NCBI GenBank assembly: GCA_016187335.1
Contig: JACPJW010000001.1
Coordinates: 404,170-468,169 of the forward strand
Direction: 5' to 3'
DNA: 64,000 nt
Origin: Candidatus Aenigmatarchaeota archaeon
Lineage (GTDB): Archaea > Aenigmatarchaeota > Aenigmatarchaeia > GW2011-AR5
Part shown: in pieces, positions 16,561-64,000 of the stretch
Layout of the letters: each line of letters opens with the position of its first letter
Position numbering within the stretch: position 1 is the first letter of the stretch
The notes under the pieces: model-generated
Database searches by the model: none
What the model was told of the DNA's origin: nothing
What the model saw: the letters and a program-made list of their open reading frames with translations, nothing else
Position numbers and translations under genes: made by a program

Positions 16561-17058
16561 TCATGCGACGCCTACTTCTATGCTCACCCTTTCTTTGCTT
16601 TCCAAGACCCCGTATCTTTTCACGAGCGACTGCGGCAAAACAAGCGTAGCGACGGGCGGGGCGCAGTAAACATAAACCTCGTTTGTTTCCACGTTGGTTA
16701 TGTTTATGACGACAGCGAAATTGGGGTCGCCAGTTACCAGGTCCCTCACATTGTTGTAGTTATCGCTGCACATCCCCTTCAGGGCGTTTATTTTCTGCAT
16801 TGATATGACATATTTTTCCGGGGTTGACAGCCCGATTCTCTTCACGTTGCCGCTGTTCCAGTTTTTTGGTGCTCCCTCGTCCAGAAGAAGCGCTTCGGAC
16901 ATGGAAAAGCTTCTTGACCTCAGGGAAGATACCAGGGAGCCCTCGTGAAACTGCGGCACGTTGTTGGCCACGCTTATAATCAGAAAAAAAACCGTGCCTA
17001 AAAACACAAGGACAGAAATGATAAACTCTATGTTCACTACTCCCTTCATTTTGAACAC
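16561..17058 (-). CDS. Small pilin-like protein with class III signal peptide
   Basis: 165 aa; MFKMKG-VVNIEFIISVLVFLGTVFFLII. Confidence 0.45.
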   Translation of the reverse strand: MFKMKGVVNIEFIISVLVFLGTVFFLIISVANNVPQFHEGSLVSSLRSRSFSMSEALLLDEGAPKNWNSGNVKRIGLSTPEKYVISMQKINALKGMCSDNYNNVRDLVTGDPNFAVVINITNVETNEVYVYCAPPVATLVLPQSLVKRYGVLESKERVSIEVGVA

Positions 17059-17076
17059 CGATACGATTCTCTGTCT

Positions 17077-18027: not shown

Positions 18028-18033
18028 GATGAT

Positions 18034-18906: not shown

Positions 18907-20740
18907 TCCTCTGCAGCAAGAACTCGGGAGCAGTATAGAACAAATTGAATACGGAACCTAATTTCTGGTAGTCGTTGAGGTTTTTTTCAGCAGACCACTT
19001 CAGGACATTTGATTTTCTTTTTATGTCCTCGTTTATTTCTTCTTCTGATGCTCCGGTTGTTTCGGAGATTTTCTTAAGCAGCGAACTCTTGTTAACTACA
19101 GTGTAGGAATCATTTTTGGGGTTCCACCTGAAAACCTCGTTGGATACCACGGAATTGCTTCTCCTGTCGTACCCGAGGATTTCTATTACAGAAGAAATCC
19201 TCCTCTTGTAGACGCGTCCGTACTTCACCCTTTTGACGAATATTATCACGTCCAGGTTCTGTATAAGCCCTATAGGAAGGCTTATCGGCGGCGTTGAAAG
19301 CCTGTCCATAAGCTTGTTGAAATTTTCCGCATGTATTGTCGACAGGCCGGCATGGCCCACGGCCATCTGCTGGAAAAGAACGTACGCTTCGCGCCCGCGG
19401 ACCTCGCCGACGATTATGTAGTCAGGCCTCTGCCTCAGTGATTCTCTGAGCAATTCAAACATGTCAACCTTGCCTTCTTCCGACAGCGGAGTTCTTGCCA
19501 CTTCCGATATCCAGTGGGAATGCGGCAGCCTCAGTTCCGGCGTGTCCTCTATGCTCACTATTTTCATCTGCGGCTTGATGAACAGGGAAAGCGCGTTGAG
19601 GAGCGACGTCTTTCCGGTAGCAGTTCCCCCGGATATGAGCAGGCTCTGGTTGTGCTCTATAAGGTACCAGAAATACGAGAGCATCTTCAGGTCGCACGTC
19701 CCGAACTTTACCATGTCCACGGGTGTTAGCGGCTTTTCCGTGAACATTCTTATGGTGAAATTGCTGCCGTGCATTGCAACGTCGCTGCTCAGGGTTGCCT
19801 GGACCCTTGAGCCGTCGGGCAGCGCCCCGTCAAGGAGCGGCTTCGCGACAGAGATAAGCTTTCCGCACCTTTCGGCAAGCTTGTTTGCAAAGGAATCAAG
19901 GGAGTCCTTGTCGGAGAACTTTATGTTAGTCCTCATTGAGCCGAGCCGCGGGTCCCTGTGGTAAATAAAAATAGGGATGTTCATGCCGTCGCAGGATATG
20001 TCCTCTATCTGCTTGTCCTTCAGGAGGGGCTCTATTTTTTCCAGCCCGACAAAATCCCTTATAACGTAATACATGAGGACGTCTACATCCACGTCAGGCC
20101 CGGCGCGGAAATAAGAGAGCGCACCCTCAAATATTTTTTTGATGTAGCTCGTGGCGTCGCCCCTTACTTCCCCGAAGTTCACGTCAATCTTTTCCTGTAC
20201 ATACTCCTTTATTTCCCTGAGCAGCGCAGAGCTTTTCTCGTCAAGCTGCGGCTCAACAATGTCGTAGACAATTTCATTTATTTTCGGATTGAAGTAAATA
20301 TGGGCGTAAGCGAAGACGCGCTCGCCCTTTTTCGGCTCCGAGGGTATTAGCGGATATGTGATGTTGATTCTTCTCATCTCAATTGTTTCTTCAGTCATGC
20401 CGACGCTTTCAATAGTCGGGGACTCGGCGGTTTCAGGTATTTTTATCCCGCCTTTTACGAATTCCTTCATATCGTAATCTTCCGTCAGTATAACAGGTAT
20501 GGGGCCTGCCGGAAGCGCTGCAGCAGGCGGCGTTGAATACCCGCGGAATTCTGAAGAAGAATCAGGCTGCGAAGAATGCGGGCTGATATCCTGGGAAATT
20601 ATACCGGGTTGTTCTTTGGCTGGCTGGGTTTTCACTTTTAGCCTTATTTTCTTCAGGCCGGTGGAAGTTTTCATGGAAATTAACACGGTCTTTTCCGGCC
20701 ATGCTTCCTTTTTAGCGAGTTTTATCTTCATTCCAAACAC
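18893..20740 (-). CDS. Type IV pilus/archaellum-family secretion ATPase (FlaI/TadA/VirB11-like)
   Basis: 615 aa; Walker A LLISGGTATGKTSLLNAL, Walker B and His box region; low-complexity N-terminal extension. Confidence 0.85.
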   Translation of the reverse strand: MFGMKIKLAKKEAWPEKTVLISMKTSTGLKKIRLKVKTQPAKEQPGIISQDISPHSSQPDSSSEFRGYSTPPAAALPAGPIPVILTEDYDMKEFVKGGIKIPETAESPTIESVGMTEETIEMRRINITYPLIPSEPKKGERVFAYAHIYFNPKINEIVYDIVEPQLDEKSSALLREIKEYVQEKIDVNFGEVRGDATSYIKKIFEGALSYFRAGPDVDVDVLMYYVIRDFVGLEKIEPLLKDKQIEDISCDGMNIPIFIYHRDPRLGSMRTNIKFSDKDSLDSFANKLAERCGKLISVAKPLLDGALPDGSRVQATLSSDVAMHGSNFTIRMFTEKPLTPVDMVKFGTCDLKMLSYFWYLIEHNQSLLISGGTATGKTSLLNALSLFIKPQMKIVSIEDTPELRLPHSHWISEVARTPLSEEGKVDMFELLRESLRQRPDYIIVGEVRGREAYVLFQQMAVGHAGLSTIHAENFNKLMDRLSTPPISLPIGLIQNLDVIIFVKRVKYGRVYKRRISSVIEILGYDRRSNSVVSNEVFRWNPKNDSYTVVNKSSLLKKISETTGASEEEINEDIKRKSNVLKWSAEKNLNDYQKLGSVFNLFYTAPEFLLQRIEYA

Positions 20741-20748
20741 CAGAACGC

Positions 20749-21219
20749 TTACCCGCGCCTTATTTTTATTGTCTTCCCGTCCAAGTATATTTCTGCCCTG
20801 CCGGCTGTACTCAGGACCTCACCGCTCAGGCAGAAAATACCTTCAATACTACAATCTGTCTGGGCTATGTTAAATAGTTTTTGAGATACTTTTGTTTCCG
20901 GATCGCTGAAATCGTAAACTATAACGGAATCATCCTTGAGGGACACGACATAAACCTTTCCCGATATTTTATCCGGCAAACTTATCACTGCAGAAGAATT
21001 CTGGGCTGCTGTCCTGACAACGCCTGCTGCCACGACATCCCCGATGTTGCGGAAATGGTCCTTTGTGGAGACGCTGTTAAGCGATGCCTGTATTGTGCTG
21101 AAGCTGAGAGCAACATGGGCGGTTATCAGGACTCCTATGGCAAACAGTAGAACTTCGTTGACGACGAGATGCTGGCCCTTCATTCCCTTATTAAGAATAT
21201 TATTTTTCCTTTTTTTCAT
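20749..21219 (-). CDS. Pilin with class III signal peptide
   Basis: 156 aa; KGMKGQ-HLVVNEVLLFAIGVLITAHVALS (KGQ motif before hydrophobic helix). Confidence 0.6.
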   Translation of the reverse strand: MKKRKNNILNKGMKGQHLVVNEVLLFAIGVLITAHVALSFSTIQASLNSVSTKDHFRNIGDVVAAGVVRTAAQNSSAVISLPDKISGKVYVVSLKDDSVIVYDFSDPETKVSQKLFNIAQTDCSIEGIFCLSGEVLSTAGRAEIYLDGKTIKIRRG

Positions 21220-28827: not shown

Positions 28828-28940
28828 GGGCTTGTAGTCTAGAGACCCTTTAGAAAAAGCGTCTACGAAAAGGGTTGGAAAATGGTTATGACGTCGCCTT
28901 CACACGGCGAAGGTCGGCGGTTCGAATCCGCCCGAGCCCA
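28828..28940 (+). tRNA. tRNA-Val (anticodon CAC) with 40-nt D-loop intron
   Basis: GGGCTTG-TA-GTCT-AG [intron 28843-28882] TGGTTA-TGAC-G-TCGCC-TTCACAC-GGCGA-AGGTC-GGCGG-TTCGAAT-CCGCC-CGAGCCC-A; exons sum to 73 nt. Confidence 0.8.
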
Positions 28941-35903: not shown

Positions 35904-38900
35904 TTACTTTATTTTCTTTATCTCTATACCTATTTTCCTGCCTTCAAAGTCCAGTTTTTCCCCTTCCGCCTTCGCGAACACGACCTTCGCCGCCCCCACT
36001 TCGTTCTTTATTTCTTTTTCCCATTTCTTCAGTTCCCCGGCCCCTTCTATTTTCAAGGCAATTTTGTCCATGACAACAAGCCCTGATTTCTTGCGCATAT
36101 CCTGCACTTTTCTGACAACCTCGCGGAGCAGGGCCTCTTTTTTCAGCTCGTCGGTGAGCAGCGTGTCCAGTTCCAGCTTGCCGCCGTCAAAGGGAACGCC
36201 ATTGTTCGTGTTTGCAAAAACAGCGGCTTTGACATTGCACATATTCTTTATTATTTCTGCAAAAGGCTTGAGATTCTCTTTGCTGTCCACTGTAAGCTTT
36301 GCCAGGGGCCACCTTATTTTTATGTTGCTTTCATGCCTTTGCGAGTTGGATGCTTCGACAAGGTTTTTTACGATATTCATGGCTTTCTCCGCCTTTGCGC
36401 TGATGTATTTTGAATCGTACTTAGGCCAGTCCCTGGTATGCACGGATTCCTTTTCGCCGAGGATTTCGAGGTTTATCTGCTCGGCGAGATACGGCGTTAT
36501 AGGCGCTAAAAGCTGCGATGTTTTTTCTGCTATCTCGTATAAGGTGTAAAAGGCCGCTTCCTTGTCTTTCCCTGAATACGCCGGCCATACGCGGTCCCGG
36601 ATCAGCTTTATGTACCACCTTGAAAAGTCGTTTACTAGGAAATCATGCAGCTCTGTTACGGCCTTGTGGCCGTTGTAGCTGCAGAAATGCTGGGTGCAGT
36701 TCTTTATGGTGGTGTTCAGGCGCGAAAGAATCCATTTGTCCTCTATATTCAGTTTTTTTGGCATTGAACCGCTTGACGCGTCGGTCTGTTTCGGTTTTGT
36801 TGCGTAGGTCTTCACGAAATTAAAGCTGTTTTCTATCACAATAAGAGACCTCGCAATGGCTTCAACGTCCGGCCACTTGAAGTAGAAGTCATCCCACGGC
36901 GCGCTTGACAGCAGATAGAAGCGAAGCACGTCCCGGCCGTATTTTTTTATAATGTCCTCCGGCTCGACAATATTTCCTTTGCTCTTTGACATTTTCACGC
37001 CGTGAGCGTCAAGTATGAAGCCGTGGAAAAGTATGTTCGTGAAGGGCTTCTCATCAAATGTTATTACCGACGTTATCAGCTCGGCGTTCCACCAGCCTCT
37101 GATTTGATCCGGGCCTTCTGTCTGGAAGTCGCTTGGCCACAGTTTCTTGAACAACGCCTTGTTTTTCGGGTAGCCGAGGGATGCCCATCCGGCAAGGCCG
37201 GCGTCAAACCAGACATCAAGGACATCGGCTATCCGTTTCATCGCAGAGCCGCACCTGCATTTCAAAAAAACGTTATCAATGTAAGGCCTGTGCAAATCAC
37301 GGGGTATTTCCGGCAATTCGTCAGCGGAGCCGATGACCTTGACGCTTTCGCATTTCTCGCATATCCATATCGGCAGCGGTATGCCCCAGTAGCGCTGCCT
37401 TGATATAGGCCAGTCGCCGAGGTTTTCAAGCCAGTTGTTGAACCGTTGCTTTGCCCATTCAGGGTACCAGTTCACATTCTTGTTTTCCTTGATGAGCTTG
37501 TCCCTTATCTTCGTCACGCGGAAGAACCACTGCGACACGGATATCAGCAGCAGGGGAGTGCTGCAGCGCCAGCATTGCGGGTAGTCGTGCGTTATCGTTT
37601 CCTCCTTCAGCAGCAGGTCTTTTTCCTTCAGCAGTTCAATTATTTTTTTGTCGCTTGCCTTGACAGGATTTCCAGCAAAAGCACCGCATTTCTCGTCAAA
37701 AGTGCCGTTGATTTTCACCGGAGATATTATGGGCAATTTGTTTTCCAGACCGACTTTGTAGTCCTCCTGTCCGTGCCCGGGGGCGGTGTGGACAAGCCCG
37801 GTGCCGTCTTCCATGCTCACGTACTGCTCTGAAAGCACAACCTTGTGCGCGCCTTTGAGCTGCTGCTGGAATGTAAAAATGTCCCGGAGCGGATGCTCGT
37901 ATTCTGTCCCAGCCAGCTTTTTTCCGGGAAACGTTTCCACAATGCTGAATGGCAGTCCGGCTTTCTTCATAACAGCTTCAAGAAGCGGCTTTGCCAGGAT
38001 AAGAAATTCAGTTCCACCAGAACTTTCCACCATTACCTTGACATATTCGTGCTTCGGATGCGCCATGATGCCTGTATTAGCTGGTAACGTCCACGGCGTT
38101 GTCGTCCATATGACCAGGAACACGTTTTCTTGTCCTTTCACCGGAAACTTAACATAAATAGAAGGGTCCTTGGCTTTGCTGTATTCTATTTCGTTGTACG
38201 CAACGGCTGTTTCGCAATTATGTGTCAAGAAGCCGTTAGTTATAAAGTTGTGATGAGTTTCAACTGCTATATCACATACTTTCCGTTTCCCCTTATATTT
38301 TATAGAATTTATTTCATCCCAAATAAATCCGTCTCTGAGGTCTTTTGCAGCATTTTTTAACCATGCATCGAATGCAGGGGTATATTTGGCAGCACGAACT
38401 GACTTAGACTTGCCATAAACCACATGCCTTACATAAAGTTCAGGTAAGTTAAGCATAATTGCGATTTTGCTGCAAGGGATCTTAGAATGTCTTAGTGATA
38501 AGATCCTACCTTTCAATTTTCTGTATTGTTTCTCAAGTGATTTTTTGTACAGAAGATAGCCCAAAACATGCGAAGCCCTGATTTTTCTGTATTTACAGTA
38601 CTCGTATCCTAAATACCGTATGAATTTAATGAGGTTGTAATCGTTGCAATCTATACTGATAGTGGTCTTCGATTTTTCTATTTTATTAACAATATTTCTT
38701 TCTGTTTTTATTTCTCCTGTCGATACCCCAAACTTATTGATAAGCGCGCATATCTGTTTTGCAAATTCCATCCCGTTTTCTTCTAGATGTCTATTTTTTG
38801 TAAGGTAAAGCCTCAGGCATTCAAATCCCTTTCCATATTTTCTGGGGCTTATTATCTGGAGTTCGCTTCCGAAGTAAGATGCCAAAAATTCCCTTGTTAA

Positions 38901-40421
38901 TTTTTTATTGGACTTTATCCATTTTGGCACAAATGTCTTTGTTTCCGTCTTTTTTCCTATAGGACAGCCTAGCGTTATAAGCAAAACAGCCAAAGACAAA
39001 GAATAACATCTCATGGATGTTGTAAATCCCTTTATTGCTCTGCCATTTACGACAGATTTAGTTGGCACGGTTGAAATATCCGAATGGCTAAAGCCAAGAA
39101 TCTTTAGGTCTTTTTGGATTTCTTTTAAATCTTCCTCTTTTCCGCAGAAATCTATGCCAAATACCGGGAATTTTCTGTTTTTAGATGTACGTACAACAAT
39201 AGATCCATCACCAAAAATATGACCTGCCAATCTGGCTAAAATAAATGATTTTGTAGATTTACTGTGAAGAGGTATCAGTTCTTTATCTTTCAATTCATTT
39301 ATTATAGAATCGTAGCGCGTAAACGTATTTACTTTTAAAATTTTTGCTACCCATGATTTTGAAACTCTTATTTTGAAGGCGTTTTGTATTTCTTTAATAA
39401 TTTTAGTATATGAATAGTTATTTTTTCTAAGTTCGGCAACAAAGTTCTTAATTTTAATTTTCGAATGACTTGTAAGGTCGTTAAATTTATGCAGATCTCT
39501 GAAAACTATATTTTCTAAGTTCTGCAAAGTAAACATTACATTATTCTCATTTACAAGAGCTTTGCCTGTTTCCGTAATTTCCGGCAGTCTGCTTTCCACA
39601 TTATTATATACGGCCACTTTGGTTCCTATTCTGAGCTTAGAAAGAGTCATCCATCCATCTTGCGTCCAGAACGGATGATCACTCGAAGCGATTAGTTTCT
39701 TTCCTGTTAGCGTTTTTACAAGAAATACATTATCTTCCAATTCCACATAGCCCAGAGGTTTTGCCGTAGTTAGAAGTTTAGAATTAGTATCAACAGCTAC
39801 AACCGTGTTGTGTTTCCAGCAGCCTTTCAGTTCTCCTATTTTTCTTGTTCCCCCTTCAACAAGAATAGTAGAATTAGGATCAACGCATCTCGGGCATACA
39901 TGCACCGGATAAAGACCCTTGTAGAGCAGTCCCTTGTCGTAAGCGGTCTTGAACGTGTGCCACGCGCCCTCTATGTACTCGTTGTTGTACGTTATGTAAG
40001 GGTTGTCCCAGTCCATCCACACGCCAAGATTCAGGAACTGGTTATTCATGACAGAAATGAACTGGCTGACGAACGCCCTGCATTCCTTGTTGAATCTCTC
40101 GACGCCTAGCCTTTCTATATCAGCCTTTGATTTTATCTCCAGTTTTTGCTCGACCTTGTTTTCTATCGGCAGCCCGTGGGTGTCGTAGCCCGGCTGGTCC
40201 CATACGTCGAAGCCGGACATGCGCCAGAATCGGATGTAGCTATCCTTCAATATTTTGTTCCAGGCAGTGCCTATGTGTATGTAGCCCGTGGCGTAAGGCG
40301 GGCCGTCAAGGAAGTAGAATTTCTTCTTTCCTTTTCTTTTTGTCTTGGCCTTCTGGTAAATGCCGTCTTTTGCCCAGAACTCGGCGATTTCTTCTTCTTT
40401 TTTCTTGCGGCTTTCTATCAT
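35904..40421 (-). CDS. ileS: Isoleucyl-tRNA synthetase interrupted by an intein
   Basis: 1505 aa; HIGH (YIHIGT), KMSKS (KMSKSKGN), WPISRQRYWGIPLP; 557-aa insertion between CPR and CETA of the zinc-binding region. Confidence 0.9.
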   Translation of the reverse strand: MIESRKKKEEEIAEFWAKDGIYQKAKTKRKGKKKFYFLDGPPYATGYIHIGTAWNKILKDSYIRFWRMSGFDVWDQPGYDTHGLPIENKVEQKLEIKSKADIERLGVERFNKECRAFVSQFISVMNNQFLNLGVWMDWDNPYITYNNEYIEGAWHTFKTAYDKGLLYKGLYPVHVCPRCVDPNSTILVEGGTRKIGELKGCWKHNTVVAVDTNSKLLTTAKPLGYVELEDNVFLVKTLTGKKLIASSDHPFWTQDGWMTLSKLRIGTKVAVYNNVESRLPEITETGKALVNENNVMFTLQNLENIVFRDLHKFNDLTSHSKIKIKNFVAELRKNNYSYTKIIKEIQNAFKIRVSKSWVAKILKVNTFTRYDSIINELKDKELIPLHSKSTKSFILARLAGHIFGDGSIVVRTSKNRKFPVFGIDFCGKEEDLKEIQKDLKILGFSHSDISTVPTKSVVNGRAIKGFTTSMRCYSLSLAVLLITLGCPIGKKTETKTFVPKWIKSNKKLTREFLASYFGSELQIISPRKYGKGFECLRLYLTKNRHLEENGMEFAKQICALINKFGVSTGEIKTERNIVNKIEKSKTTISIDCNDYNLIKFIRYLGYEYCKYRKIRASHVLGYLLYKKSLEKQYRKLKGRILSLRHSKIPCSKIAIMLNLPELYVRHVVYGKSKSVRAAKYTPAFDAWLKNAAKDLRDGFIWDEINSIKYKGKRKVCDIAVETHHNFITNGFLTHNCETAVAYNEIEYSKAKDPSIYVKFPVKGQENVFLVIWTTTPWTLPANTGIMAHPKHEYVKVMVESSGGTEFLILAKPLLEAVMKKAGLPFSIVETFPGKKLAGTEYEHPLRDIFTFQQQLKGAHKVVLSEQYVSMEDGTGLVHTAPGHGQEDYKVGLENKLPIISPVKINGTFDEKCGAFAGNPVKASDKKIIELLKEKDLLLKEETITHDYPQCWRCSTPLLLISVSQWFFRVTKIRDKLIKENKNVNWYPEWAKQRFNNWLENLGDWPISRQRYWGIPLPIWICEKCESVKVIGSADELPEIPRDLHRPYIDNVFLKCRCGSAMKRIADVLDVWFDAGLAGWASLGYPKNKALFKKLWPSDFQTEGPDQIRGWWNAELITSVITFDEKPFTNILFHGFILDAHGVKMSKSKGNIVEPEDIIKKYGRDVLRFYLLSSAPWDDFYFKWPDVEAIARSLIVIENSFNFVKTYATKPKQTDASSGSMPKKLNIEDKWILSRLNTTIKNCTQHFCSYNGHKAVTELHDFLVNDFSRWYIKLIRDRVWPAYSGKDKEAAFYTLYEIAEKTSQLLAPITPYLAEQINLEILGEKESVHTRDWPKYDSKYISAKAEKAMNIVKNLVEASNSQRHESNIKIRWPLAKLTVDSKENLKPFAEIIKNMCNVKAAVFANTNNGVPFDGGKLELDTLLTDELKKEALLREVVRKVQDMRKKSGLVVMDKIALKIEGAGELKKWEKEIKNEVGAAKVVFAKAEGEKLDFEGRKIGIEIKKIK
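38217..39887 (-). mobile_element. Intein with LAGLIDADG homing-endonuclease domain inside ileS
   Basis: Starts CVDPNSTILVEGG, contains ILARLAGHIFGDGSI, ends FLTHN followed by Cys; A/T-rich relative to exteins. Confidence 0.7.
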
Positions 40422-48374: not shown

Positions 48375-48962
48375 GTGGTTAGAATGCCCAATGAAGGTTC
48401 AGGTCTAATCGTATTTCTTAATGGCACAAGCAGTTCTGGAAAAACCAGTATAGCTGCTGAGCTGACCAGAACACTGTTTGGCTACGAGTACATGGGGGTA
48501 GATGAATATTTAACGCGTGACAGAAATTTAGACGAACAACTTCAAAGACAGGATGAGCAAGGCATAGTTAAAGCGGCTACAGATGCCATTTATAATTTCC
48601 ACAACTCAATTGCGGCCAGGGCTGCTGCAGGACGGAACGTTGTCGCGGATCATGTTCTTTGGGATTCCGAACTGACAGAGCACGCCGCGAGAACCCTAGG
48701 GCCTTACCATGTCCTTCTCGTGGGCGTATATTGCCCTCTTGATATCGCAAAGGAGAGGGAAAAGAAACGTGGTGACAGAATTCTAGGGATTGTGCAATGT
48801 CAATTTCCGGTTGTTCATGAAGGCAAGCTATATGATGTGACGGTCGATACTTCTGTTTTGAGACCCGAGCAGTGCGCAACAGAAATTATAGACGCAATTA
48901 ATAGTAGGCAGTATATTTCTCGGCCTACTCGTGAAAAATTTGTTGTACCAACTGAATTATAA
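48375..48962 (+). CDS. P-loop kinase of the chloramphenicol-phosphotransferase-like family
   Basis: 195 aa; Walker A FLNGTSSSGKTSIA; overall CPT-like layout; A/T-rich codons. Confidence 0.5.
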   Translation: MVRMPNEGSGLIVFLNGTSSSGKTSIAAELTRTLFGYEYMGVDEYLTRDRNLDEQLQRQDEQGIVKAATDAIYNFHNSIAARAAAGRNVVADHVLWDSELTEHAARTLGPYHVLLVGVYCPLDIAKEREKKRGDRILGIVQCQFPVVHEGKLYDVTVDTSVLRPEQCATEIIDAINSRQYISRPTREKFVVPTEL

Positions 48963-49000
48963 ATAATAAGAGAAAGAAATCAAGGAAAACAAAGGAGAGG

Positions 49001-49321
49001 TTGGTCTTGTCTATGGACATAGAGTTTTGTGGTTGCGGCGGCATGCTTGCGCCTGCCGGAAAGGGATTGCTAAGGTGCAGGTCCTGCGGCAAGGAACTGG
49101 AAAAAAAATTTCATGGCAAAATAACGGCAAAGTCCGAGAAAAAGGAAATCGTCGTGATAGAAGACAACGCTCCTGATCTGCCGACAACTGACAAGGAATG
49201 CCCGAAGTGCAAGCATGGAAAGGCTTACTGGTGGCTCATCCAGACAAGGAGCGCGGACGAGCCGCCCACGCAGTTCTTCCGATGCATAAAGTGCAGGCAC
49301 GTGTGGCGGGAGTACAAGTGA
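49001..49321 (+). CDS. tfs: Transcription factor S / RNA polymerase subunit M (TFIIS-type zinc ribbon)
   Basis: 106 aa; N-terminal CxxC ribbon and C-terminal CPKC...QTRSADEPPTQFFRCIKCRHVWRE with acidic hairpin. Confidence 0.75.
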   Translation: MVLSMDIEFCGCGGMLAPAGKGLLRCRSCGKELEKKFHGKITAKSEKKEIVVIEDNAPDLPTTDKECPKCKHGKAYWWLIQTRSADEPPTQFFRCIKCRHVWREYK

Positions 49322-49394
49322 TTTTTTCGCAGTCTTCACGTGATTAATTAAAGTTTTCAATTTCCTTTAAGAAAATTGTTTCCAAAGGAAATTC

Positions 49395-50465
49395 ATGAAT
49401 TCTTCAGATGCACTTCTCAGGGAGCTTTCTCCTTATTTCATACCGCCTGAAAAGACCCGTGCAAGGCAGCGTTTCGGCGGCTTTGATGCGGCGAAAACAA
49501 CATTCAGGGATGCGAAGGTCATCGTATACGGCGTGCCGTTTGAAGGCACACAGACATATCATGCGGGCAGTCACCTCGGGCCGTGGGCAATCAGGGACGT
49601 AACGGGCAACCAGCTTGAACCCTTTGTAATCGACCAGGGAATCGATCCTTATGCCGCAGTCGGAGTTTTTGATATCGGCGACTTCAAACTTCGCGTTTAT
49701 AGAAACGATAGAAAACTGATTTATGATGTAATGCATCCTTCTGTCAGGGCAACCAAAAGGCAGATAGAAGCAGCCAAAGCCAGAGTAAACAGGGCTGTTG
49801 AAAAGCTAGGTAGCCTGGAAAGAATTACCGAAATGCTGAGGAATGAAGGCAAAGTTCCGCTCATGCTTGGAGGCGAGCATCTGGTTTCTTTGTGGCCTAT
49901 CAGGGGCGTTTCCAGAGAAAATCCTGTAGTTCTTCATTTTGACGCTCATATGGACATGAAAAGACAGTATTTAGGCGTCGTTTATTCTCATACAACACCG
50001 ATGTATCATGTGATTTACGGCGACAAGCCTGTTGAGGGCAGGGATTTTGTCCAGATAGGAATAAGGCAGGCGTCACCTGATGAGATTGGTAACGCCAAGG
50101 AAAAAGGCGTAAATGTTTTTTATTCGCTGAAACACACATGGAGAGGAATAGAATCGCAGTTTTCGGATGAAATGATAGCTGATGTGAAAACCTTTGTAAG
50201 GGAAATCACGCATGGCAGGCGGGTTTACGTGACATTTGATATGGACGTTTTGGATTGCCCTTACGTCCCATTCAGTGGAACTCCCGAGCCTTTTGGAATA
50301 ACTCCGCTACAGGCTTACAAAATATTTCAGTCAATAGATGACGGTGCCGAAATAATAGGCATGGATTTTGTTGAAACAAGTTCTGATGGCAAAAGCACAA
50401 TAGAAGGAGCTGTTGCCTCGCATCTGATTCTAAGAATGCTCTGCCACCCTTCACTGAGGCGCTAA
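49395..50465 (+). CDS. Arginase/agmatinase-family ureohydrolase
   Basis: 356 aa; manganese-binding motifs GGEHLVS, HFDAHMD, TFDMDVLD. Confidence 0.8.
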   Translation: MNSSDALLRELSPYFIPPEKTRARQRFGGFDAAKTTFRDAKVIVYGVPFEGTQTYHAGSHLGPWAIRDVTGNQLEPFVIDQGIDPYAAVGVFDIGDFKLRVYRNDRKLIYDVMHPSVRATKRQIEAAKARVNRAVEKLGSLERITEMLRNEGKVPLMLGGEHLVSLWPIRGVSRENPVVLHFDAHMDMKRQYLGVVYSHTTPMYHVIYGDKPVEGRDFVQIGIRQASPDEIGNAKEKGVNVFYSLKHTWRGIESQFSDEMIADVKTFVREITHGRRVYVTFDMDVLDCPYVPFSGTPEPFGITPLQAYKIFQSIDDGAEIIGMDFVETSSDGKSTIEGAVASHLILRMLCHPSLRR

Positions 50466-51163
50466 ACCCAAACCCCCAGCAATGAGCCGATAAGGAAGCC
50501 TGTCAATGCCGCTGCCATCCCGACCAAGGACATCTCTATTCCGCTCTTCCACCATGTGCCCAGAGTCATCTTCGCCTTGACGGAGCCGGCGATGAACAAA
50601 GTGATAGTTGAAATTATTACGGAAACAATTATAGCATCCTTTATCGGTATGAAGAAGAAAGGCAGCAGCGGTATCAGCGAGCCGATGATAGCTGAGAATC
50701 CTACGACGAATGCGCTTTTTGTCGGGTTCTCAGAGTCCTCAGGCGATACGTGAAGTTCCTCTGTCATCATCGTGTCCAGCCACACCTTCTTGTCGGACGT
50801 GATTTTGTCCACTATTTTTTTCAGCGGGGCGCCGCGGAATCCTTTCCTGTAATAAATGTCGCGAATTTCCTTCCTTTCGACATGCGGCAGTTCCCTTATC
50901 TCCTTCATCTCCCTTTCCTTTTCGCTTTTGTAGAAATCCCTGCTTGCCTTGAAGGACGTGTAAGCGACAGCTGCCATGGAAATGCTCTCCGCAAAGGTGG
51001 CGGCAATGCCGGCAATAATGACTATTCTGGCGTCCTGCACGGCTGTCGCGACACCGAGAATGATTCCCAGAACATTGACGAGGCCGTCCTGCCCGCCGAG
51101 GATGAAGTCGCGCAGCGTAGAGCCGCTCTTGTGCATTTCCCTGTGAACGTCTGCTGACGACAT
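50462..51163 (-). CDS. VIT1/CCC1-family membrane protein (iron/manganese transporter-like)
   Basis: 233 aa; GGQDGLVNVLGIILG N-terminal helix, central cytoplasmic segment, C-terminal TM helices. Confidence 0.7.
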   Translation of the reverse strand: MSSADVHREMHKSGSTLRDFILGGQDGLVNVLGIILGVATAVQDARIVIIAGIAATFAESISMAAVAYTSFKASRDFYKSEKEREMKEIRELPHVERKEIRDIYYRKGFRGAPLKKIVDKITSDKKVWLDTMMTEELHVSPEDSENPTKSAFVVGFSAIIGSLIPLLPFFFIPIKDAIIVSVIISTITLFIAGSVKAKMTLGTWWKSGIEMSLVGMAAALTGFLIGSLLGVWV

Positions 51164-51228
51164 GGTTTTCTCTTGGCGAAAACGTGATTTAAAGATTTTA
51201 GTTGAGTTTTAGTGTAGCATTAGTTCAT

Positions 51229-51492
51229 GCGCCCGTAGCTCAGCTTGGCAAACTTTGCTACTCCAAAGTTTGATCAAAAGAGGTCTGTGACGAAGTTTGA
51301 GCAAATAGAGCACTTCTCTCCTAGAGGTGAATTGAGCGCAACGGAAGACTGAAGTTTCTGAAGAAACTTCAGCCGGTTTTGTGCGATGATAATTTCCTGA
51401 AGTGAGGAAGGGGCCGCGCGTTCGAATGCACCCTTTCTTGGAAAGAAAGCGTGCACGGAAAGAAAAGGGTGCCGAATATCGCGCCGGGCGCG
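51229..51492 (+). tRNA. tRNA-Arg (anticodon CCU) with three introns
   Basis: Exons GCGCCCG-TA-GCTC-AGCTTGG / TAGAGC-A-CTTCT-CTCCTA / A-GGAAG-GGGCC-GCGCG-TTCGAAT / CGCGC-CGGGCGC-G; introns about 51249-51305, 51324-51404, 51428-51479; exons sum to 74 nt. Confidence 0.8.
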
Positions 51493-51495
51493 CTT

Positions 51496-51798
51496 ATGTT
51501 CCATTACAGAGATCCGATAAGGGAAATAGCGGAAGAAGACGGATATTTCCTCACCGAGACAGCCGAAGGTATGAATCTTGCCTTGAAGACAATCTTAGGC
51601 TTTGCAAGCATAATACTCAGGGAACTGGAAGGGGGGAAATGTTATGTAAAAATAGTACTTGAGCCTCCTAGAGGTTTATCAAGGACAGCCGAAGAAATTT
51701 TTGAAAGTCCTTATTCCGCGGCCGGATATGTTGCAAAATGGATGTGCGGACCTATCTATACGGATCTGGTTCAAGAAGTTGAGGCGTTAATTCTCTAA
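51496..51798 (+). CDS. Hypothetical protein
   Basis: Start taken at MFHYRDPIRE because the track ORF overlaps the tRNA-Arg 3' exon. Confidence 0.4.
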   Translation: MFHYRDPIREIAEEDGYFLTETAEGMNLALKTILGFASIILRELEGGKCYVKIVLEPPRGLSRTAEEIFESPYSAAGYVAKWMCGPIYTDLVQEVEALIL

Positions 51799-51832
51799 TC
51801 TTTATATTCCGCCTTCGCACAAAAGATTCATT

Positions 51833-53170
51833 ATGAGGAAATATCTGTTATCAATAGTCCTGCTGCTGCTTTCGTCTGTACCTGTTTTTGCAGTGGGCAA
51901 CCTCACGGTTTTCAGCGTTCCTTTATCACAGCCGGCTGTCTACGCAAACACCAACCAGTCCGTTAACGTCCTTAACCTGACCCTGAACGTGACGGCGGGC
52001 AGCGGCGCGGACGGCGTCATCAACATAACTGTCATCAATATTACGGTGACCAACAGCAGCGAAGGCAACCTGTCAGCGGGCAATATATCAGCGGTTGAGG
52101 TCAGGAACAGCACGGGGTTCCCGATAGCAAGGAACACAACAGTCAATCCTGCAAACAACATGACGTTCACGATTTCAATCCCGGGAGGGCTGACCATAAA
52201 CACATCTAATGCGACCATATGGATTGCCATCAACATATCAAGGTCGGCGGCGCGCTTCCTGAACATATCAGTGAACATAACGGGTCCCGGGGAAATAGGC
52301 ACGAACAGCTCTGTGAACAATATCACGATATCAGGCGTTTCAATAAAGTCAAACGGCGTGCAGATACAGAATTTACATTCAAACTCAACAATATCGCCGC
52401 GCTTTGTGGACACGGGCGTTGAGAACCAGTCGTTCACTTACACCTTGGTTCCGCCGACTGGAACGGATGCAATAAAGAACGTCAGTATTTCGTTCCCGGC
52501 CAATTACACCTTGTCCAAGCTCATTTCAATAATGGTTGGCGGCGGCGTCCCGGACGGCGCGACAAACAATACAGCCGTCAACGGCATAAACATTTCCCTG
52601 AGCACGGCCACGACCCAGACAATACAGGTAAACTTCACCGCCAACACTTCCGTCAATCCTATCCAGAACAGGGCGTTCTCATCAACCCTGGACGGAGGAA
52701 ACCTCTCTGCCGTGTCAACTGATCCCACGCTGGAAGGGGTGAATGTAAGCACACAGCCCATACTGAACCTTACGAACGTCACCCTGGTAAAAAGCACTGC
52801 AATAATCAACGGCACCGATTACTGGGAATTCAATTTCACTTTGAATTACACTGCCAACATATCAACAGGAGGCCTGATTCAGTTCAGGCTCACGGACTGG
52901 AACACTTCTTCCGGCAGCACGCTTGCATTGAACAATTCATTGTGCGATGGCAGCAGGTGCGCGTCCCTGAGGAACGAGACAACCATGAACACCACAGGGA
53001 AATTCAACATAACGAATGATTACGAATCTTTCACAAAGGGAATCACCATATCGTCCATAACACAGGGCACCCTGACAATACTGGTCTTGAGAATGGTAAT
53101 ACCTTCAAATGCCCCGACATCATCCAACTGGCAGGCTGCTTACGGATTTTTGTTCAGGTCAAGCCCTTGA
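51833..53170 (+). CDS. Secreted surface protein, extremely N-glycosylation-sequon rich
   Basis: 445 aa; signal peptide MRKYLLSIVLLLLSSVPVFA; about 40 N-x-S/T sequons counted by hand. Confidence 0.6.
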   Translation: MRKYLLSIVLLLLSSVPVFAVGNLTVFSVPLSQPAVYANTNQSVNVLNLTLNVTAGSGADGVINITVINITVTNSSEGNLSAGNISAVEVRNSTGFPIARNTTVNPANNMTFTISIPGGLTINTSNATIWIAINISRSAARFLNISVNITGPGEIGTNSSVNNITISGVSIKSNGVQIQNLHSNSTISPRFVDTGVENQSFTYTLVPPTGTDAIKNVSISFPANYTLSKLISIMVGGGVPDGATNNTAVNGINISLSTATTQTIQVNFTANTSVNPIQNRAFSSTLDGGNLSAVSTDPTLEGVNVSTQPILNLTNVTLVKSTAIINGTDYWEFNFTLNYTANISTGGLIQFRLTDWNTSSGSTLALNNSLCDGSRCASLRNETTMNTTGKFNITNDYESFTKGITISSITQGTLTILVLRMVIPSNAPTSSNWQAAYGFLFRSSP

Positions 53171-53191
53171 CGTTTTTAATAGTGATGCTGA

Positions 53192-54403
53192 ATGGATTAT
53201 CGCCTTTCAATACTTTTAGCTGCGGCATGCCTGCTTCTGCTGTCCTTCGTTTCCAGAGGAGAAACAACCGGCAATGTAAGCATCTCAACGCAGGGAAATA
53301 TTTCCCCGTCAACAGGGGTTTACGGATATGTAGCTCCCGGCGGATGCAACAGCAACGCGGAGTGCTACGACTATAAATGCTTCCAGGATTTTTTGGTGCC
53401 ATCCGGAAACAAGACCGGCAGGTGCGACGTCCCGGCAACCACAAAATGCTTTCACAGCGGGACAGGCTATTCAACCGGCACTTATTATTGCTCGGCTAAC
53501 ACATCGTATTACCGGTGCGATACAGGCGGCAACGGAAGCTGGACAGGCGCGTTTTCGTGCTCGTCAGGCCAGACGTGTTCTGTTGATAGTACGTCGTCTT
53601 CAGCCCCTTGCTCAACATCGTCGCCTTCAAGCAGCTCAAGCAGCAGCGGAGGCGGAGGCACAGCAATAAAGAAAGCCTCTGTCCAGCTTGTCTCGGGCAT
53701 AGCCGGCTTTGAAATTTATCAGGAGGAAGATGTCAACAAAACGGTTATCGTGAAAAACAACGGCGATTATGTCCTTGGCAATGTCTACCTTGACATACAG
53801 GGAATTCCTTTTGCTTCCGTCCTTACGGGCAGCAGCGAGATCAATTTGTCAAAAAATTACAACTTCACCGTGTCTTTCATGCCCAAAAACTCTACTGAAA
53901 TCAGGACGTACCCCGCCAATGCAACGGTTTATACCAACTTCACCAATACGACGGCAAACTTTTCCTTCACAGTCAAAGTACTCCCAAGCAACAGGACCGT
54001 TTCAGAGTCAATCATTCCCGCGTACGCAGAATATATCAACCTTTCTCTGGAATACGAAAAGAACGTAACGGCCCTGGAAAAGGAAGGGCATAACCTCACG
54101 GATGCGAGGGCGATTCTTACGACAATAAAGGCAAAGATGCAGGACATCAACCAGTCGATATCCAAGAAGGACTACTTTTCTGCTGCATCCCAGATCAGCG
54201 AGGTGAAGGTTCTTTTTGATGAGCTCCAGAAAACCATTTCAAAATCCGAAAAGCCGAAAGGAACGGATATAATAATTTATCTGGCCGTCGCCGCTGCCAT
54301 TCTGGTGGCAGTTATTCTGGCCTACCTTCTGTGGCCGTCAAAGCAGCAAAGAAGAGTTTTTCAGGGCCAGCAGTATTCGCAAGCAGCAGTAATTAAGCAA
54401 TAG
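53192..54403 (+). CDS. Surface protein with Cys-rich N-domain, Ser-rich linker and C-terminal TM anchor
   Basis: 403 aa; signal peptide, Cys-rich segment, poly-Ser stretch, many sequons, C-terminal hydrophobic helix IIIYLAVAAAILVAVILAYLLW. Confidence 0.6.
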   Translation: MDYRLSILLAAACLLLLSFVSRGETTGNVSISTQGNISPSTGVYGYVAPGGCNSNAECYDYKCFQDFLVPSGNKTGRCDVPATTKCFHSGTGYSTGTYYCSANTSYYRCDTGGNGSWTGAFSCSSGQTCSVDSTSSSAPCSTSSPSSSSSSSGGGGTAIKKASVQLVSGIAGFEIYQEEDVNKTVIVKNNGDYVLGNVYLDIQGIPFASVLTGSSEINLSKNYNFTVSFMPKNSTEIRTYPANATVYTNFTNTTANFSFTVKVLPSNRTVSESIIPAYAEYINLSLEYEKNVTALEKEGHNLTDARAILTTIKAKMQDINQSISKKDYFSAASQISEVKVLFDELQKTISKSEKPKGTDIIIYLAVAAAILVAVILAYLLWPSKQQRRVFQGQQYSQAAVIKQ

Positions 54404-56404: not shown

Positions 56405-56509
56405 GCCGGCGTCGCATAATCTGGTGGTGCACTGATTGCATGCGAAGCAAGTGTATGTCTCGAAAACCAGCGGGCTCTGCCCATGCAGGTTCAAATCCTG
56501 CCGCCGGCG
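56405..56509 (+). tRNA. tRNA, anticodon unresolved, probably intron-containing
   Basis: Acceptor GCCGGCG/CGCCGGC with discriminator G; T-arm GCAGG-TTCAAAT-CCTGC; internal 73 nt could not be folded into a unique cloverleaf. Confidence 0.5.
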
Positions 56510-58230: not shown

Positions 58231-58431
58231 AAATTTTCTAACGTAAAACAAAAACGTTGATTATTTTACAATTCTCTTTTTTATTTCACTATTTATCTTT
58301 CTTTTATTTCAAATTATAAAATTCTTTGATTAATTCTTCAAAATCCCGTGCTTCTCTCGTGCTTTCTGCGTAATTTGCGCCTTGGAAAATCTTTATTAAT
58401 GGGTTTTTACAAGAACTATAAAGGTGAAGAA

Positions 58432-59067
58432 ATGGTATCCCAGATAGTAGATGTATTATCTCAGTTTACCGTTGGTACAGTGTCTTTCCTGCCAAGCCTG
58501 GTTGCTGCCGTCATTCTTCTGGTCATCGGCTTGGTTGTTGGAAAAATAGTGGGAAGGGTAGTCAAGGAAGCCTTGGAAAAGCTGAAGGTTGACTACTACG
58601 TTTCGGAAACCAAGAAGCCCGTTGTGATGCTGAGCGATTTGTTCGCCCTCATAGCAAGATGGTGGATATACCTTGCGTTCGTAACGGCGGCTTTGTCCAC
58701 GAACGTTCTTGGCATACCGTCATTGGCGTTGTGGGTTTCTGAAATCAATGCATTCATCCCGCGAATCATCGGCGCAGCCGTGATTCTGATTTCGGGCTAC
58801 ATCCTGGCTGAGTACATCAGGGGTCACTTGGTGTCATTGAAGAAACTCTATGCAGAGGTTGTCGGCAAGATGCTATTCTTCTTCGTCATGTACGTGGCGC
58901 TTGCGCTTGCCCTGCCTATTCTAGGGGTTTCAGCAATCCTGGTGAACAACATCCTGATAGTAATCATAGCCTCGATAGGGCTTGCAATGGCAATAGCCCT
59001 GGGCCTGGGATTGAAGGACGCTGTTTCTGACGTTTCCAAGAGATATGTCAAAAAGCTGAAAGTTTGA
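58432..59067 (+). CDS. Integral membrane protein
   Basis: Start taken at MVSQIVDVL; multiple TM helices. Confidence 0.55.
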   Translation: MVSQIVDVLSQFTVGTVSFLPSLVAAVILLVIGLVVGKIVGRVVKEALEKLKVDYYVSETKKPVVMLSDLFALIARWWIYLAFVTAALSTNVLGIPSLALWVSEINAFIPRIIGAAVILISGYILAEYIRGHLVSLKKLYAEVVGKMLFFFVMYVALALALPILGVSAILVNNILIVIIASIGLAMAIALGLGLKDAVSDVSKRYVKKLKV

Positions 59068-61395: not shown

Positions 61396-61547
61396 AAATT
61401 CGTTTTCTGTGTAATGTTTTTGCCTTACTAGTTTTCTGGAAACCTATATATTGCGCTTCTCACAAATCTATTGCAGAACAAAGTTTCTGCAATTTGTGAA
61501 ACTATGGTTCCACAGTATTGCAGTTAGTCGTAACTATCTGTGGTAAA

Positions 61548-64000
61548 GATGACGCTTATACTAAGAATAAACGGGCATAACGTTGCAATAGCCCCGGGCG
61601 CTCCTTATCCGACAGGGGCGTTTCCGCCCGCAGGAGTTGTTTTGCCTGCCGGCGAGCAGGAGCTGGATTTTTATTGCGAAGTCCAGACTGGCGGTCCAGG
61701 TGCTATTCCTGCCGGCTACGGTGGAAACTGGTTCTTTAATTTCTTTTCAGTGGACGACGGGATTTCCATAAATCCCAATCCCGAAACTCCAAGGCCGACA
61801 AACGCTGTGAAATTCAAGGCAAAACTGAAGCCCGGGGCTCACCAGATACTTGTAAGGGTTCAGGGAAGCCTGAGATTGCCGGCAGGGTACCCTCCTGTTG
61901 AATACGTCATGTTAACAATAACAATCCCGCCGCCGATAACGACATTGACAGTCAAAATAAAAAGCCCTGAAAACAATTCCAACGTAGTCCTAAAAAGAAC
62001 TCCTGCAGGACTGCCTTATCACGACCCCCTGAATTTTCAGTGCGAAATAAAAGGCGGAAGGTCTCCTTACATTGTCAGATGGTTTTCATATTCTGAATCA
62101 AATTTTAATGTATACACCGTGTCCAAAATACTCGTACACGAGGAAACGACAAAAAGCGGTTCTGTATCTTTTTCGCGCGGAGGAGAAGAATACCCGGTTC
62201 CTGCAAAGACGCTTCCACCTCCTCCAGCGCTACCTCCACCGTTTCCACCGCCTCCGGATCCAAAAATTCCGTTCAGCCTGCTTGAAGGCAGGCATACAAT
62301 TAGTGTAAACGTAGTAGATTCAACTGCGCCTGCGCCAATAACAGTCGGTGATATGGTCAATATCACGGTGAGCACGGAGCCTAAAAAAGCAGGAGACATA
62401 CTTCCGGGCGGCGACGAAAGCCTGGGAGGCGCTGCCCGCGGCAGGGAAGGCATGGGGCTTGCGGGCCTTCCCGGAATCAGGAAAAGGCTCGGCAAAGAAG
62501 TGGGAAGGCTTGACTGGTCAAAGCGTGCGGCAAATCCTGCATTGCGCTCAGCTATCAACAGAGGCAAGAAACTGCTTGACCAGGCGACCAATGCCGCTTA
62601 CTACAGGCTCTTTGATGGCCCCGGCGGCGTCCAGCAAAGGCAGCAAAGAAGAATACGGGAGCTTGAGGACGCGAGAAAGGATTACGAAGCATCGATGAAC
62701 TCACTGAGAAAATATTTCCGGAAATACAAGATAAAGGCAGGCGTTCCGTTGCTCGTGACGGCAAGGATGGCATCCGCTCAGGACCTGACGAACATTGCAA
62801 ACACGATTGCGCAGGAGCAGCCCGCGCTTCAGGCGCAGATGCAGGAGCACCAGAACGCAATAAAAAGATACCTTGAGCTGCGGGACAAATTCGACGAGAC
62901 TTCCGAAAACGAAATTGATAAAGCAGGCAAGGAGCTTCAGGAATATGCAAAGCAAAGGGCAGGAACCTTTGCAACAAGGCTCGGATACCAGTACGGATTC
63001 CCTGCTAACCCTCCCGATGAAAGAAACGCCCTGAAAACCGAGCTTGAACAATACGCTGTTGATATTGCAGAAGAATTCCTGAGGCGCGGAAGGTCAAAAT
63101 TTTTTGCAGCGGCGAGGTTCATGCGCCGCGTCGGACTGGGAACGGAAACAATCGCAGAAAGTTATTATAACGTTATCCGCAGCCTGTGGGACCTGATAAC
63201 CGGTCCTTGGACAATCGCGTGGCTTTTCGTGGTTGCGCAGTTTTACTTCTCCTTGAGCTACATAGGCTACCAGCCTACCCTGTTGTTCACCATGCCGGCC
63301 GGCGGCGCCGTGATGATGTTCCTCATGAACTTTTCGCAGATAAAACGGCCTCTTGACGGCGTCACGCACGCGGGCGTCGGAGCGCTCTTAGGTCAGGGCA
63401 TCATAATCTTCATGTTCGCCCTGGGCATCACGCCGAACCTCTGGGGATGGGGATGGTTCGTTGGAATATGGTTCATCTTCGGCACCATAGGCGCGTTTGA
63501 GTTCTATCCCGTCGGCGGACCGCAGATAATGTTCCAGACAGCCGTGCTTGTCATCATTTTCGGCTACATAGCACTCGGCCCTTACAAGGGCTACTGGGAA
63601 CTTGTAAAAGACCAGCTGAGGGCGCCTTTGTACACCATGTACGTATCTATGAAAAACGCCGTCAATGACGTCTGGCTGCTGGCTACAAACCCCACTGCCT
63701 GGTACGCGAAGCAGCAGGTTATCAATGTCCGGCCCGAGCAGCCCATATCGTTCCCCGTGGAGATAGAAACGCCTGTTTTTGAAGGCCTGCCGCCGTCAGC
63801 GCCGGCAGGCACAGCTTTCTCCGTATCAATAGTTACGAAAAACAGCGGCAAGCTTGACGCGAAGAACATTGTCATAGAGCACGCATGCAACGAGTGGTGC
63901 GAGAACAGGGGCGCAATCGTGCCTGATGCATATCCGCTGCTGCATCCCGGAGAAAGCCAGGCGTTCTTCATGCAGAAGTTCGCAGCAAAGAAAGCCACGG
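61548..64000 (+). CDS. Large membrane protein, partial (runs off window end)
   Basis: Hand-translated open frame from ATG near 61548 with no stop to window end: N-terminal domain, proline-rich PPPPALPPPFPPPPDP segment, coiled-coil region, then several TM helices. Confidence 0.45.

Follow-up and report, generated by a model that had tools for sequence, protein, structure and literature searches.

Pairing of an N-glycosylated surface protein with a membrane-anchored partner is well known in archaea. In the surface layer (S-layer) of Sulfolobales, the anchorless glycosylated protein SlaA, with 31 predicted sites in 1,424 amino acids (aa), or 2.2 per 100 aa, is encoded beside the transmembrane (TM)-anchored stalk protein SlaB, with 14 sites in 475 aa, or 2.9 per 100 aa (PMC10903991). 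A review terms the SlaA value "remarkable glycosylation density," and high density is usually ascribed to thermoacidophily. The candidate S-layer protein (SLP) of N. aerobiophila has 15 sites in 1,000 aa, the SLP of Ns. viennensis has 6 sites and that of Np. piranensis has 8, and the thread subunit Saci_0406 carries 5 glycans per subunit (PMC9715654). For Aenigmarchaeota, a preprint names as SLPs the MSTP-like proteins A0A842Q7F5 (745 aa) and A0A8T5PKF4 (794 aa), with DPANN orthologues, a zincin-like anchor, and p6 lattices predicted by AlphaFold-multimer (10.1101/2024.05.28.596244). Here we analyzed a pair of adjacent genes, A and B, in a 64,000-nucleotide stretch (hereinafter, the window) of a Candidatus Aenigmatarchaeota archaeon genome (assembly GCA_016187335.1, contig JACPJW010000001.1, positions 404,170 to 468,169 of the forward strand). 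Protein A has 9 sequons per 100 aa, about four times the density of SlaA, in a lineage found mainly in groundwater, aquifers, and sediments, which challenges the explanation of dense glycosylation by thermostability. There is about an even chance that A and B constitute a glycan-coated, stalk-mounted surface complex distinct from the S-layer lattice, and the locus points to a glycan-dominated surface in episymbiotic archaea that have no experimentally characterized surface protein.

The initial annotation had described A as a surface protein with about 40 N-glycosylation sequons in 445 residues, roughly one per eleven and often in runs, and had regarded it as an unusually dense glycan-shield candidate. 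Exact counting gave 40 N-x-S/T sequons (x is not proline), one per 11.1 residues, and the quoted run GVINITVINITVTNSS, also given as NITVINITVTNSS, was found at residues 62-76. The density was 9.0 sequons per 100 aa in A and 4.5 in B, against a median of 0.3 and a next highest value of 1.6 in a set of 59 crude open reading frames (ORFs) of at least 100 aa from the window, and this supports the glycan-shield reading. Asparagine, serine, and threonine together make up 37.5% of A, but 5,000 shuffles of its own residues produced only 13.2 ± 3.0 sequons (maximum 24; z = 8.9 for the observed 40). Since the excess over composition is about threefold, a density merely equal to that of other Asn/Ser/Thr-rich proteins, which the annotation had named as the counter-case, does not account for it. 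Of the asparagines of A, 73% sit in sequons. Shuffling of B gave 5.0 ± 1.9 sequons against 18 observed. The gp120 subunit of HIV-1 Env has roughly 25 sequons in about 480 residues, so that the density of A is nearly twice as high; the likeness lies in dense glycan masking and is a functional analogy only, since fold and biology differ.

The database contained 54 homologues of A with lengths of 283-469 aa, and 51 sequences of 417-469 aa, down to 29% identity, were aligned. All 51 aligned members had 29-48 sequons; a sequon was shared by half or more of the members in 28 alignment columns and by 80% or more in 11. The family contained 1,934 N-x-S/T motifs, compared to 690 mirror S/T-x-N, 573 N-S/T (i+1), 513 N-x-x-S/T, and only 3 N-P-S/T motifs, which corresponds to a 2.8-fold excess over the mirror motif and a 2.8-3.8-fold excess over control motifs. 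The ratio of N-x-T to N-x-S was 2:1, while threonine and serine were roughly equal in abundance. At position x, isoleucine, valine, phenylalanine, and leucine were enriched, as expected if Asn and Ser/Thr both face outward from beta-strands. Such a directional, register-specific, proline-excluding, and threonine-favoring pattern matches the specificity of an oligosaccharyltransferase rather than a compositional effect.

Modules of the types forming the first two domains of A (D1 and D2; Table 1) also occur in other proteins, where exhaustive profile searches revealed 356 copies. Sorted by density, 17 of these proteins average 7.1 and 54 average 1.4 sequons per 100 aa; the single named protein of the dense class belongs to Aenigmatarchaeota and that of the sparse class to an Elusimicrobiota bacterium. 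The existence of sparse homologous modules means that the module fold does not require sequons. In the loci related to A, the other ORFs of at least 150 aa (n = 141) had a median of 0.17 sequons per 100 aa, and none exceeded 3. Conservation in 51 of 51 members, the directional register, the sparse homologous modules, and the low-density neighboring ORFs together indicate that the sequon excess of A looks to be under selection. The opposite explanation, that the sequons are a by-product of Asn/Ser/Thr composition or of a structural Asn/Thr pattern and carry little glycosylation, can appeal to the 37.5% share of these residues and to the fact that archaeal sequons are sometimes unused. We consider it very improbable, since shuffling yields 13 sequons and not 40, homologous modules average 1.4 per 100 aa, and the excess over control motifs comes with exclusion of proline at x and preference for threonine.

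Selected sequons and a Sec signal peptide, the properties looked for in a substrate of the oligosaccharyltransferase AglB, were both found in A; DPANN archaea have their own AglB clade (PMC8993221). The mature protein has a mass of 44.6 kDa, and sequons take up 28% of its residues. Assuming full occupancy and glycans of 0.4-1.2 kDa, carbohydrate would constitute 26%-52% of the mass of A. As a compact 45 kDa protein of three domains, A offers a substrate for exploring the limits of archaeal oligosaccharyltransferase density on a folded protein.

The Sec-type N-terminus MRKYLLSIVLLLLSSVPVFA, followed by VGN after the predicted cleavage site, agrees with the earlier assignment of a signal peptide; Ala20 is kept in at least 90% of the members, and the PVFA motif is common to the loci. 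Protein A is anchorless: motif and hydropathy scans revealed no LPxTG, PGF-CTERM, TM, or C-terminal hydrophobic segment. AlphaFold2 modeling on the family alignment produced an all-beta structure of three domains with complete sandwiches in the monomer (predicted local distance difference test [pLDDT] 88, predicted template modeling score 0.79), although monomer models are able to self-complement. The third domain (D3) is the most conserved and is largely confined to the family of about 440 aa, as every one of the 356 copies found in large proteins was assigned to D1 or D2 and none to D3. The last ~35 residues of A were the only stretch without sequons in all 51 members, while nearly all other 15-residue windows had 0.6-2.8 per member. 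Being both sequon-free and conserved, this tail is a candidate for a bare protein-protein contact. The only invariant lysine of the family, K320, is located in the first strand of D3 beside the invariant D329 and the conserved N326 and N334 of the NGTDYWEFNF segment (window positions ~52790-52835). An intramolecular isopeptide bond in D3 is conceivable by analogy with the best structural neighbors of A, which include isopeptide-bonded Gram-positive pilin domains.

Neither A nor B had a significant match in Pfam, NCBIfam, PHROGs, PADLOC, or among the PDB sequences, and scanning of the 51 A members one by one revealed no family match, including DUF1608. As judged by these searches, A and B are two undescribed protein families, and A-D3 and the Cys-rich head of B are two new domain families for annotation. 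Structure prediction had been proposed as a check for beta-rich, S-layer-like folds. The model of A is all-beta, and A showed no sequence or fold match to SlaA, to MSTP/DUF1608, or to any solved SLP. The fold matches included stalk domains of bacterial fibrillar adhesins and shaft pilins of Gram-positive bacteria (RrgB, BcpA, SpaD, antigen I/II C123, PrgB), from which A differs in its archaeal origin, in having no LPxTG or sortase signal, and in an identity of 5%-13%.

Table 1. Coordinates of features of genes A and B in the window and of gene C in related loci
Feature	Position	Strand	Description
Gene A	51833-53170	+	ATG start; 445 aa; secreted, anchorless; 40 N-glycosylation sequons
Candidate B-recognition element (BRE)/TATA element ATCTTTATATT	51798-51808	+	25 nt upstream of the A ATG; resembles the archaeal TATA consensus
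A signal peptide	51833-51892	+	aa 1-20; predicted cleavage PVFA/VGN; sole hydrophobic segment
A domain 1 (D1)	51893-52348	+	aa 21-172; immunoglobulin (Ig)-like beta-sandwich; 19 sequons, 11.9 per 100 aa; from AlphaFold2 and counts
A domain 2 (D2)	52349-52732	+	aa 173-300; Ig-like beta-sandwich; 9 sequons; invariant P189, D193, T194, N198, Q199
A domain 3 (D3)	52733-53167	+	aa 301-445; 12 sequons; invariant K320..A323..G327-D329-W331-F333 (NGTDYWEF)
A C-terminal tail	53054-53167	+	aa ~408-445; sequon-free, conserved; W433, Y437, F441, R442
Shine-Dalgarno-like AGTGAT	53181-53186	+	5 nt before the B start codon
Gene B	53192-54403	+	403-aa type-I membrane protein; signal peptide; 18 sequons; operon partner of A
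B mature N-terminal peptide	53261-53332	+	aa 24-47; ETTGxINxS/T...TGxxGY; G42 invariant
B Cys-rich head	53333-53611	+	aa 48-140; ten conserved Cys (residues 52-140)
B Ser/Thr/Gly-rich linker	53612-53671	+	aa 141-160; STSSPSSSSSSSGGGG; Ser/Thr-rich in all homologues; disordered in model
B NEW3/CARDB-type Ig-like domain	53672-53986	+	aa 161-265; confident in model
B three-helix region	53987-54247	+	aa 266-352; four sequons; KDYF motif
B TM helix	54269-54334	+	aa 360-381; basic cytoplasmic tail to 54400; hydropathy and model helix 360-379
Gene C, first listed group	L009:6409-7233, L018:8492-9301, L003:3003-3812, L010:8574-9377, L007:5136-5987		
Gene C, second listed group	L017:8686-9381, L015:8566-9240, L021:2971-3642, L016:2821-3507, L012:8465-9187	- (L012)	

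The D1 module (profile positions ~17-170) is present in 3-18 copies per giant protein, and D2 also occurs in tandem, e.g., nine copies in protein P0106. The sequon count was 125-176, or 6.6-7.9 per 100 aa, in each of six giant surface proteins of 1,600-2,700 aa (P0112, P0121, P0135, P0137, P0171, and P0182). These proteins contain domain 1 of A in up to 13 tandem copies and have an N-terminal hydrophobic anchor, and several of them share a common C-terminal motif, GGSTLKYxNNTN..Y.IN.TA. The Aenigmatarchaeota protein P0171 terminates in a nearly complete A-like unit and gives a single long match to the A profile (positions 77-426) reaching into D3. Pfam scans of five giant module-bearing proteins revealed nothing over the D1 and D2 modules. 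The hyper-sequon habit appears to be shared by some, at least, of the other large surface proteins in this lineage.

Gene B was described in the initial annotation as a neighbor with a Cys-rich domain, a poly-Ser linker, and a C-terminal anchor, and the identical protein sequence has been deposited as a hypothetical protein from a Candidatus Aenigmarchaeota metagenome-assembled genome (MAG). This description proved accurate: there are 11 cysteines, ten of them within the head, followed by the linker STSSPSSSSSSSGGGG, a C-terminal TM helix, and a basic tail, so B is a membrane-anchored protein. The head was modeled at low confidence (pLDDT 35-60). Pfam family PF10633 (NEW3) matched 16 of 24 members of the B family, with a best E-value of 2.3e-11, and CARDB (PF07705) matched 3 of 24; the copy from the window falls below the threshold, yet aligns throughout. 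In the monomer model, the helical region is made up of three helices, each 22-31 residues long, which look like an antiparallel bundle, and the TM region has conserved Y378, W381, and P382. Like the haloarchaeal S-layer glycoprotein (PMC5744192), B combines a C-terminal anchor, a Ser/Thr-rich spacer, thought to be O-glycosylated in haloarchaea, and an N-glycosylated ectodomain, the latter predicted in B. Unlike in that protein, the Ser/Thr cluster of B separates the head from the Ig domain and does not adjoin the anchor, PGF-CTERM is missing, and no homology was detected.

Genes A and B form a conserved operon. BLAST located a same-strand B homologue downstream of A in 19 loci and phmmer did so in 20, and a partner followed A in all 22 loci with room downstream, for proteins down to ~30% identity. 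The two genes are separated by 21 nt in the window and by 5-25 nt in most of the loci, and (A)GTGAT recurs before the ATG of B, which suggests translational coupling. Upstream of A, the motif AATCTTTA(T/A)AT (AATCTTTAWAT) was found 25-50 nt from the start codon in about 16 of 19 loci, in which the proteins are 35%-45% identical; in the window, ATCTTTATATT would act as the promoter of the operon. Its distance of 25 nt from the ATG of A suggests a leaderless or very-short-leader mRNA. The 10-mer ATCTTTAWAT has two copies in the window. The second one (51187-51196, minus strand) precedes the start of the VIT1 transporter gene (50462-51163, minus strand) by about 25 nt. The wider synteny is also conserved, with a PIN/KH ATPase upstream and a helix-turn-helix regulator and a 174-aa coiled-coil protein downstream. 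All 22 genome loci with relatives of A came from Aenigmatarchaeota or unclassified archaeal MAGs, mostly of groundwater, aquifer, and sediment origin; counting named members, the A and B families are so far found only in Aenigmarchaeota.

In the two loci that had seemed to be exceptions, the gene downstream of A encodes a variant partner of 340 aa, designated B-prime (L020:543-1565 and L022:770-1792), which has no Cys-rich head. The signal peptide, the TM helix, and a basic Y(R/K)Y tail are kept, as are the N-terminal motif (D/E)(S/T)G..N.(S/T)...TGLWG and a linker, here a long poly-Thr one. Retention of the N-terminal motif by proteins devoid of the head argues that, outside the cell, this peptide and not the head is the part that B cannot do without, and the peptide may be involved in binding of A.

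It could be proposed that A and B are co-expressed and do not bind each other, A being released as a soluble matrix protein, adhesin, or decoy and B acting as an independent membrane protein. The missing anchor of A fits such a scheme, and conserved gene order by itself is no proof of interaction. We find this improbable in view of the partner present in 22 of 22 loci at tight spacing with a Shine-Dalgarno-like element, the heavy loss that release of a protein with 40 glycans would mean for an ultra-small cell, and the single sequon-free conserved patch of A, which suggests a dedicated protein contact.

If A and B do associate, a SlaA/SlaB-like two-component S-layer, either the sole or an alternative one, with A as the lattice subunit and B as the anchored stalk, is the obvious model. 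An anchorless, sequon-heavy, beta-rich protein is indeed encoded beside one that combines a beta-sandwich, a helical stalk with sequons, and a TM helix at the C-terminus; conservation of the pair is strict and extends to a consensus promoter, and archaeal SLPs are commonly arrays of Ig-like domains. On the other hand, no homology of A or B to SlaA or SlaB was found in sequence or fold. Glycosylation of A and B is predicted, but A is less than a third of SlaA in length, both proteins exceed their counterparts in site density, and the loci are mainly from groundwater, aquifer, and sediment MAGs, not from a thermoacidophile. Protein B has a Cys-rich head, a Ser-rich linker, and a monomer model with three short antiparallel helices, whereas SlaB has a single 132-residue helix forming a long trimeric coiled coil. 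The D1 and D2 domains act like the stalk modules repeated in tandem in giant fibrillar proteins, and with about 28% of its residues in sequons, A would have little bare surface for lattice contacts. This working hypothesis was downgraded because the SLPs of Aenigmarchaeota, as assigned in the preprint, are other proteins of the MSTP-like type, which bring an anchoring domain of their own and for which p6 lattices are predicted (10.1101/2024.05.28.596244), and we now regard it as rather unlikely. The MSTP-like SLPs and A are all secreted beta-sandwich envelope proteins of Aenigmarchaeota; the former, however, have ~750-1,070 aa and a C-terminal Glyco_hydro_67N-like (zincin-like) anchor, while members of the A family have 417-469 aa and are all-beta and anchorless. 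Homology searches detected no MSTP-like lattice domains in the 51 A members. Two other candidates for SLPs were rejected: the ORF running from 61540 to the window end has no signal peptide and contains a Pro-rich region, coiled coil, and multiple TM segments, and the "S-layer genes" reported for Aenigmarchaeota (PMC8407114) are patchy matches to generic arCOG S-layer-domain families rather than a defined gene.

Another possible architecture is a glycosylated filament of A subunits assembled by donor-strand exchange, as in threads, bundling pili, and chaperone-usher pili, with the N-terminal strand of B anchoring the membrane-proximal A. Threads consist of Sec-secreted, N-glycosylated beta-sandwich subunits co-transcribed with a strand-donating minor subunit (Saci_0406 and Saci_0405; PMC9715654), and A is likewise a Sec-secreted beta-sandwich protein encoded with a partner whose N-terminal strand may plug in. 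The mature N-terminal motif of B is kept even in B-prime, and the fold matches include Gram-positive shaft pilins for A and PapD-like chaperone folds for B. A nearly invariant mature N-terminus, the hallmark of threads, is missing in A, where the mean top-residue frequency is 0.52 at residues 21-35 and 0.54 over the full length. Thread subunits are identical in their first 7 mature residues and have an isopeptide-forming Asp; in addition, they carry only 5 glycans, and B is membrane-anchored, while Saci_0405 is not described so. Among the structural matches listed for A there was no thread subunit. Overall, a filament of this kind appears quite improbable.

A coat apart from the lattice is favored because the matching folds are of the stalk type, D1 and D2 serve as tandem rod modules in giant surface proteins, and A has scarcely any bare surface. 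According to this reading, A would be exported via the Sec pathway with removal of the signal peptide, and AglB would glycosylate most of the ~40 sequons on the solvent-facing sides of beta-strands in three tandem Ig-like, stalk-type domains. The finished protein, about 25%-50% carbohydrate at 0.4-1.2 kDa per glycan, would have almost no bare surface except the conserved C-terminal tail. Protein B, produced from the same transcript, would be a stalk comprising the TM helix, three-helix bundle, NEW3 Ig domain, Ser/Thr linker, Cys-rich head, and conserved N-terminal peptide, and would hold the anchorless A at the cell surface. Together, A and B could form a glycan-dominated outer coat or fibril (glycocalyx), separate from the MSTP-like S-layer lattice predicted for the phylum and possibly serving for shielding or host-cell contact. 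Several points weigh against this reading. The SLP of Np. piranensis has unused sequons, and no STT3/AglB was found among the 25 most-matched of 45 families in the window. The contact between A and B is proposed from gene order only, and the conservation of the B N-terminal peptide differs only modestly from that of the rest of B (0.56 vs. 0.50). The dense and sparse module classes were defined by density itself, with taxonomy known for one protein per class, and the argument against a lattice draws on the computational assignment made by the preprint in other Aenigmarchaeota genomes (10.1101/2024.05.28.596244). A broader proposal, which we put forward only tentatively, is that A and B make up the outermost layer of Aenigmarchaeota, a stalk-mounted layer of about half carbohydrate with the densest N-glycan array described for any prokaryotic protein, evolved in ultra-small archaea rather than thermophiles, acting as a host-contact interface or a shield against viruses or host defenses, with giant proteins of at least 150 sequons extending the same principle.

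In about ten related loci, an additional gene, C, starts at or overlaps the stop codon of B (Table 1). It encodes a multi-pass membrane protein of 223-283 aa and occurs in two mutually unrelated types, both without a Pfam match; in L012, it is on the strand opposite to B. Gene C may serve the assembly or export of the A/B complex. A tblastn search of the window did not find it, and the ORF at 58348-59067 was rejected as a candidate since it encodes a mechanosensitive-channel-type TM-repeat protein.

A segment of ~3.5 kb (48375-51800) between the PIN/KH ATPase gene and A contains genes for a CPT-like kinase, a TFS-like zinc ribbon protein, an agmatinase/arginase-family protein, and the VIT1 transporter. 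The related loci contained no homologue of any of these four genes; the PIN/KH ATPase was found in 15 of them. The 670-bp gap upstream of A (51164-51832) contains, at ~51230-51250, the sequence GCGCCCGTAGCTCAGCTTGG resembling a tRNA 5' acceptor and D-arm; even with the cutoff relaxed to E ≤ 1, Rfam matched nothing here, and ARAGORN called no tRNA. It may be a tRNA fragment marking an old insertion. A 115-aa ORF at 51451-51798 has no homologue in the other loci and may not be a gene.

The window as a whole is archaeal housekeeping DNA with genes for the thermosome, fibrillarin/Nop, TFS, tRNA-splicing endonuclease, mevalonate pathway enzymes, and topoisomerase VI. Inteins (Intein_splicing) were identified in isoleucyl-tRNA synthetase (1,505 aa, 35904-40421, minus strand) and in subunit A of topoisomerase VI (904 aa, 9432-12146, minus strand), the latter also with a LAGLIDADG homing-endonuclease domain. 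Rfam revealed three tRNA genes (8403-8521, minus strand; 28872-28940 and 56405-56509, plus strand), while ARAGORN called none in the window. The lengths of 119 and 105 nt are presumably accounted for by introns, and the tRNA-splicing endonuclease gene is present in the window. The ORF at 61540-64000 (plus strand), extending past the window end, encodes more than 820 aa with no Pfam match and has a beta-rich N-terminal region, the proline-rich stretch PPPPALPPPFPPPPDP, a long charged coiled-coil-like middle part, and several TM segments near residues 560-700.

Codon usage was tried as a proxy for expression: A ranked 4th of 53 for preference of NNC over NNT codons, but the thermosome ranked 21st, so the measure is uncalibrated and proves nothing. 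A type IV pilus/archaellum-like cluster was found at ~15471-21219 on the minus strand. Its ORF at 18893-20740 encodes an ATPase of the T2SSE family that has a PilB3_C domain, and T2SSF was matched by two ORFs of the window. The small ORFs at 15471-18027 had the strongest NNC codon bias in the window.

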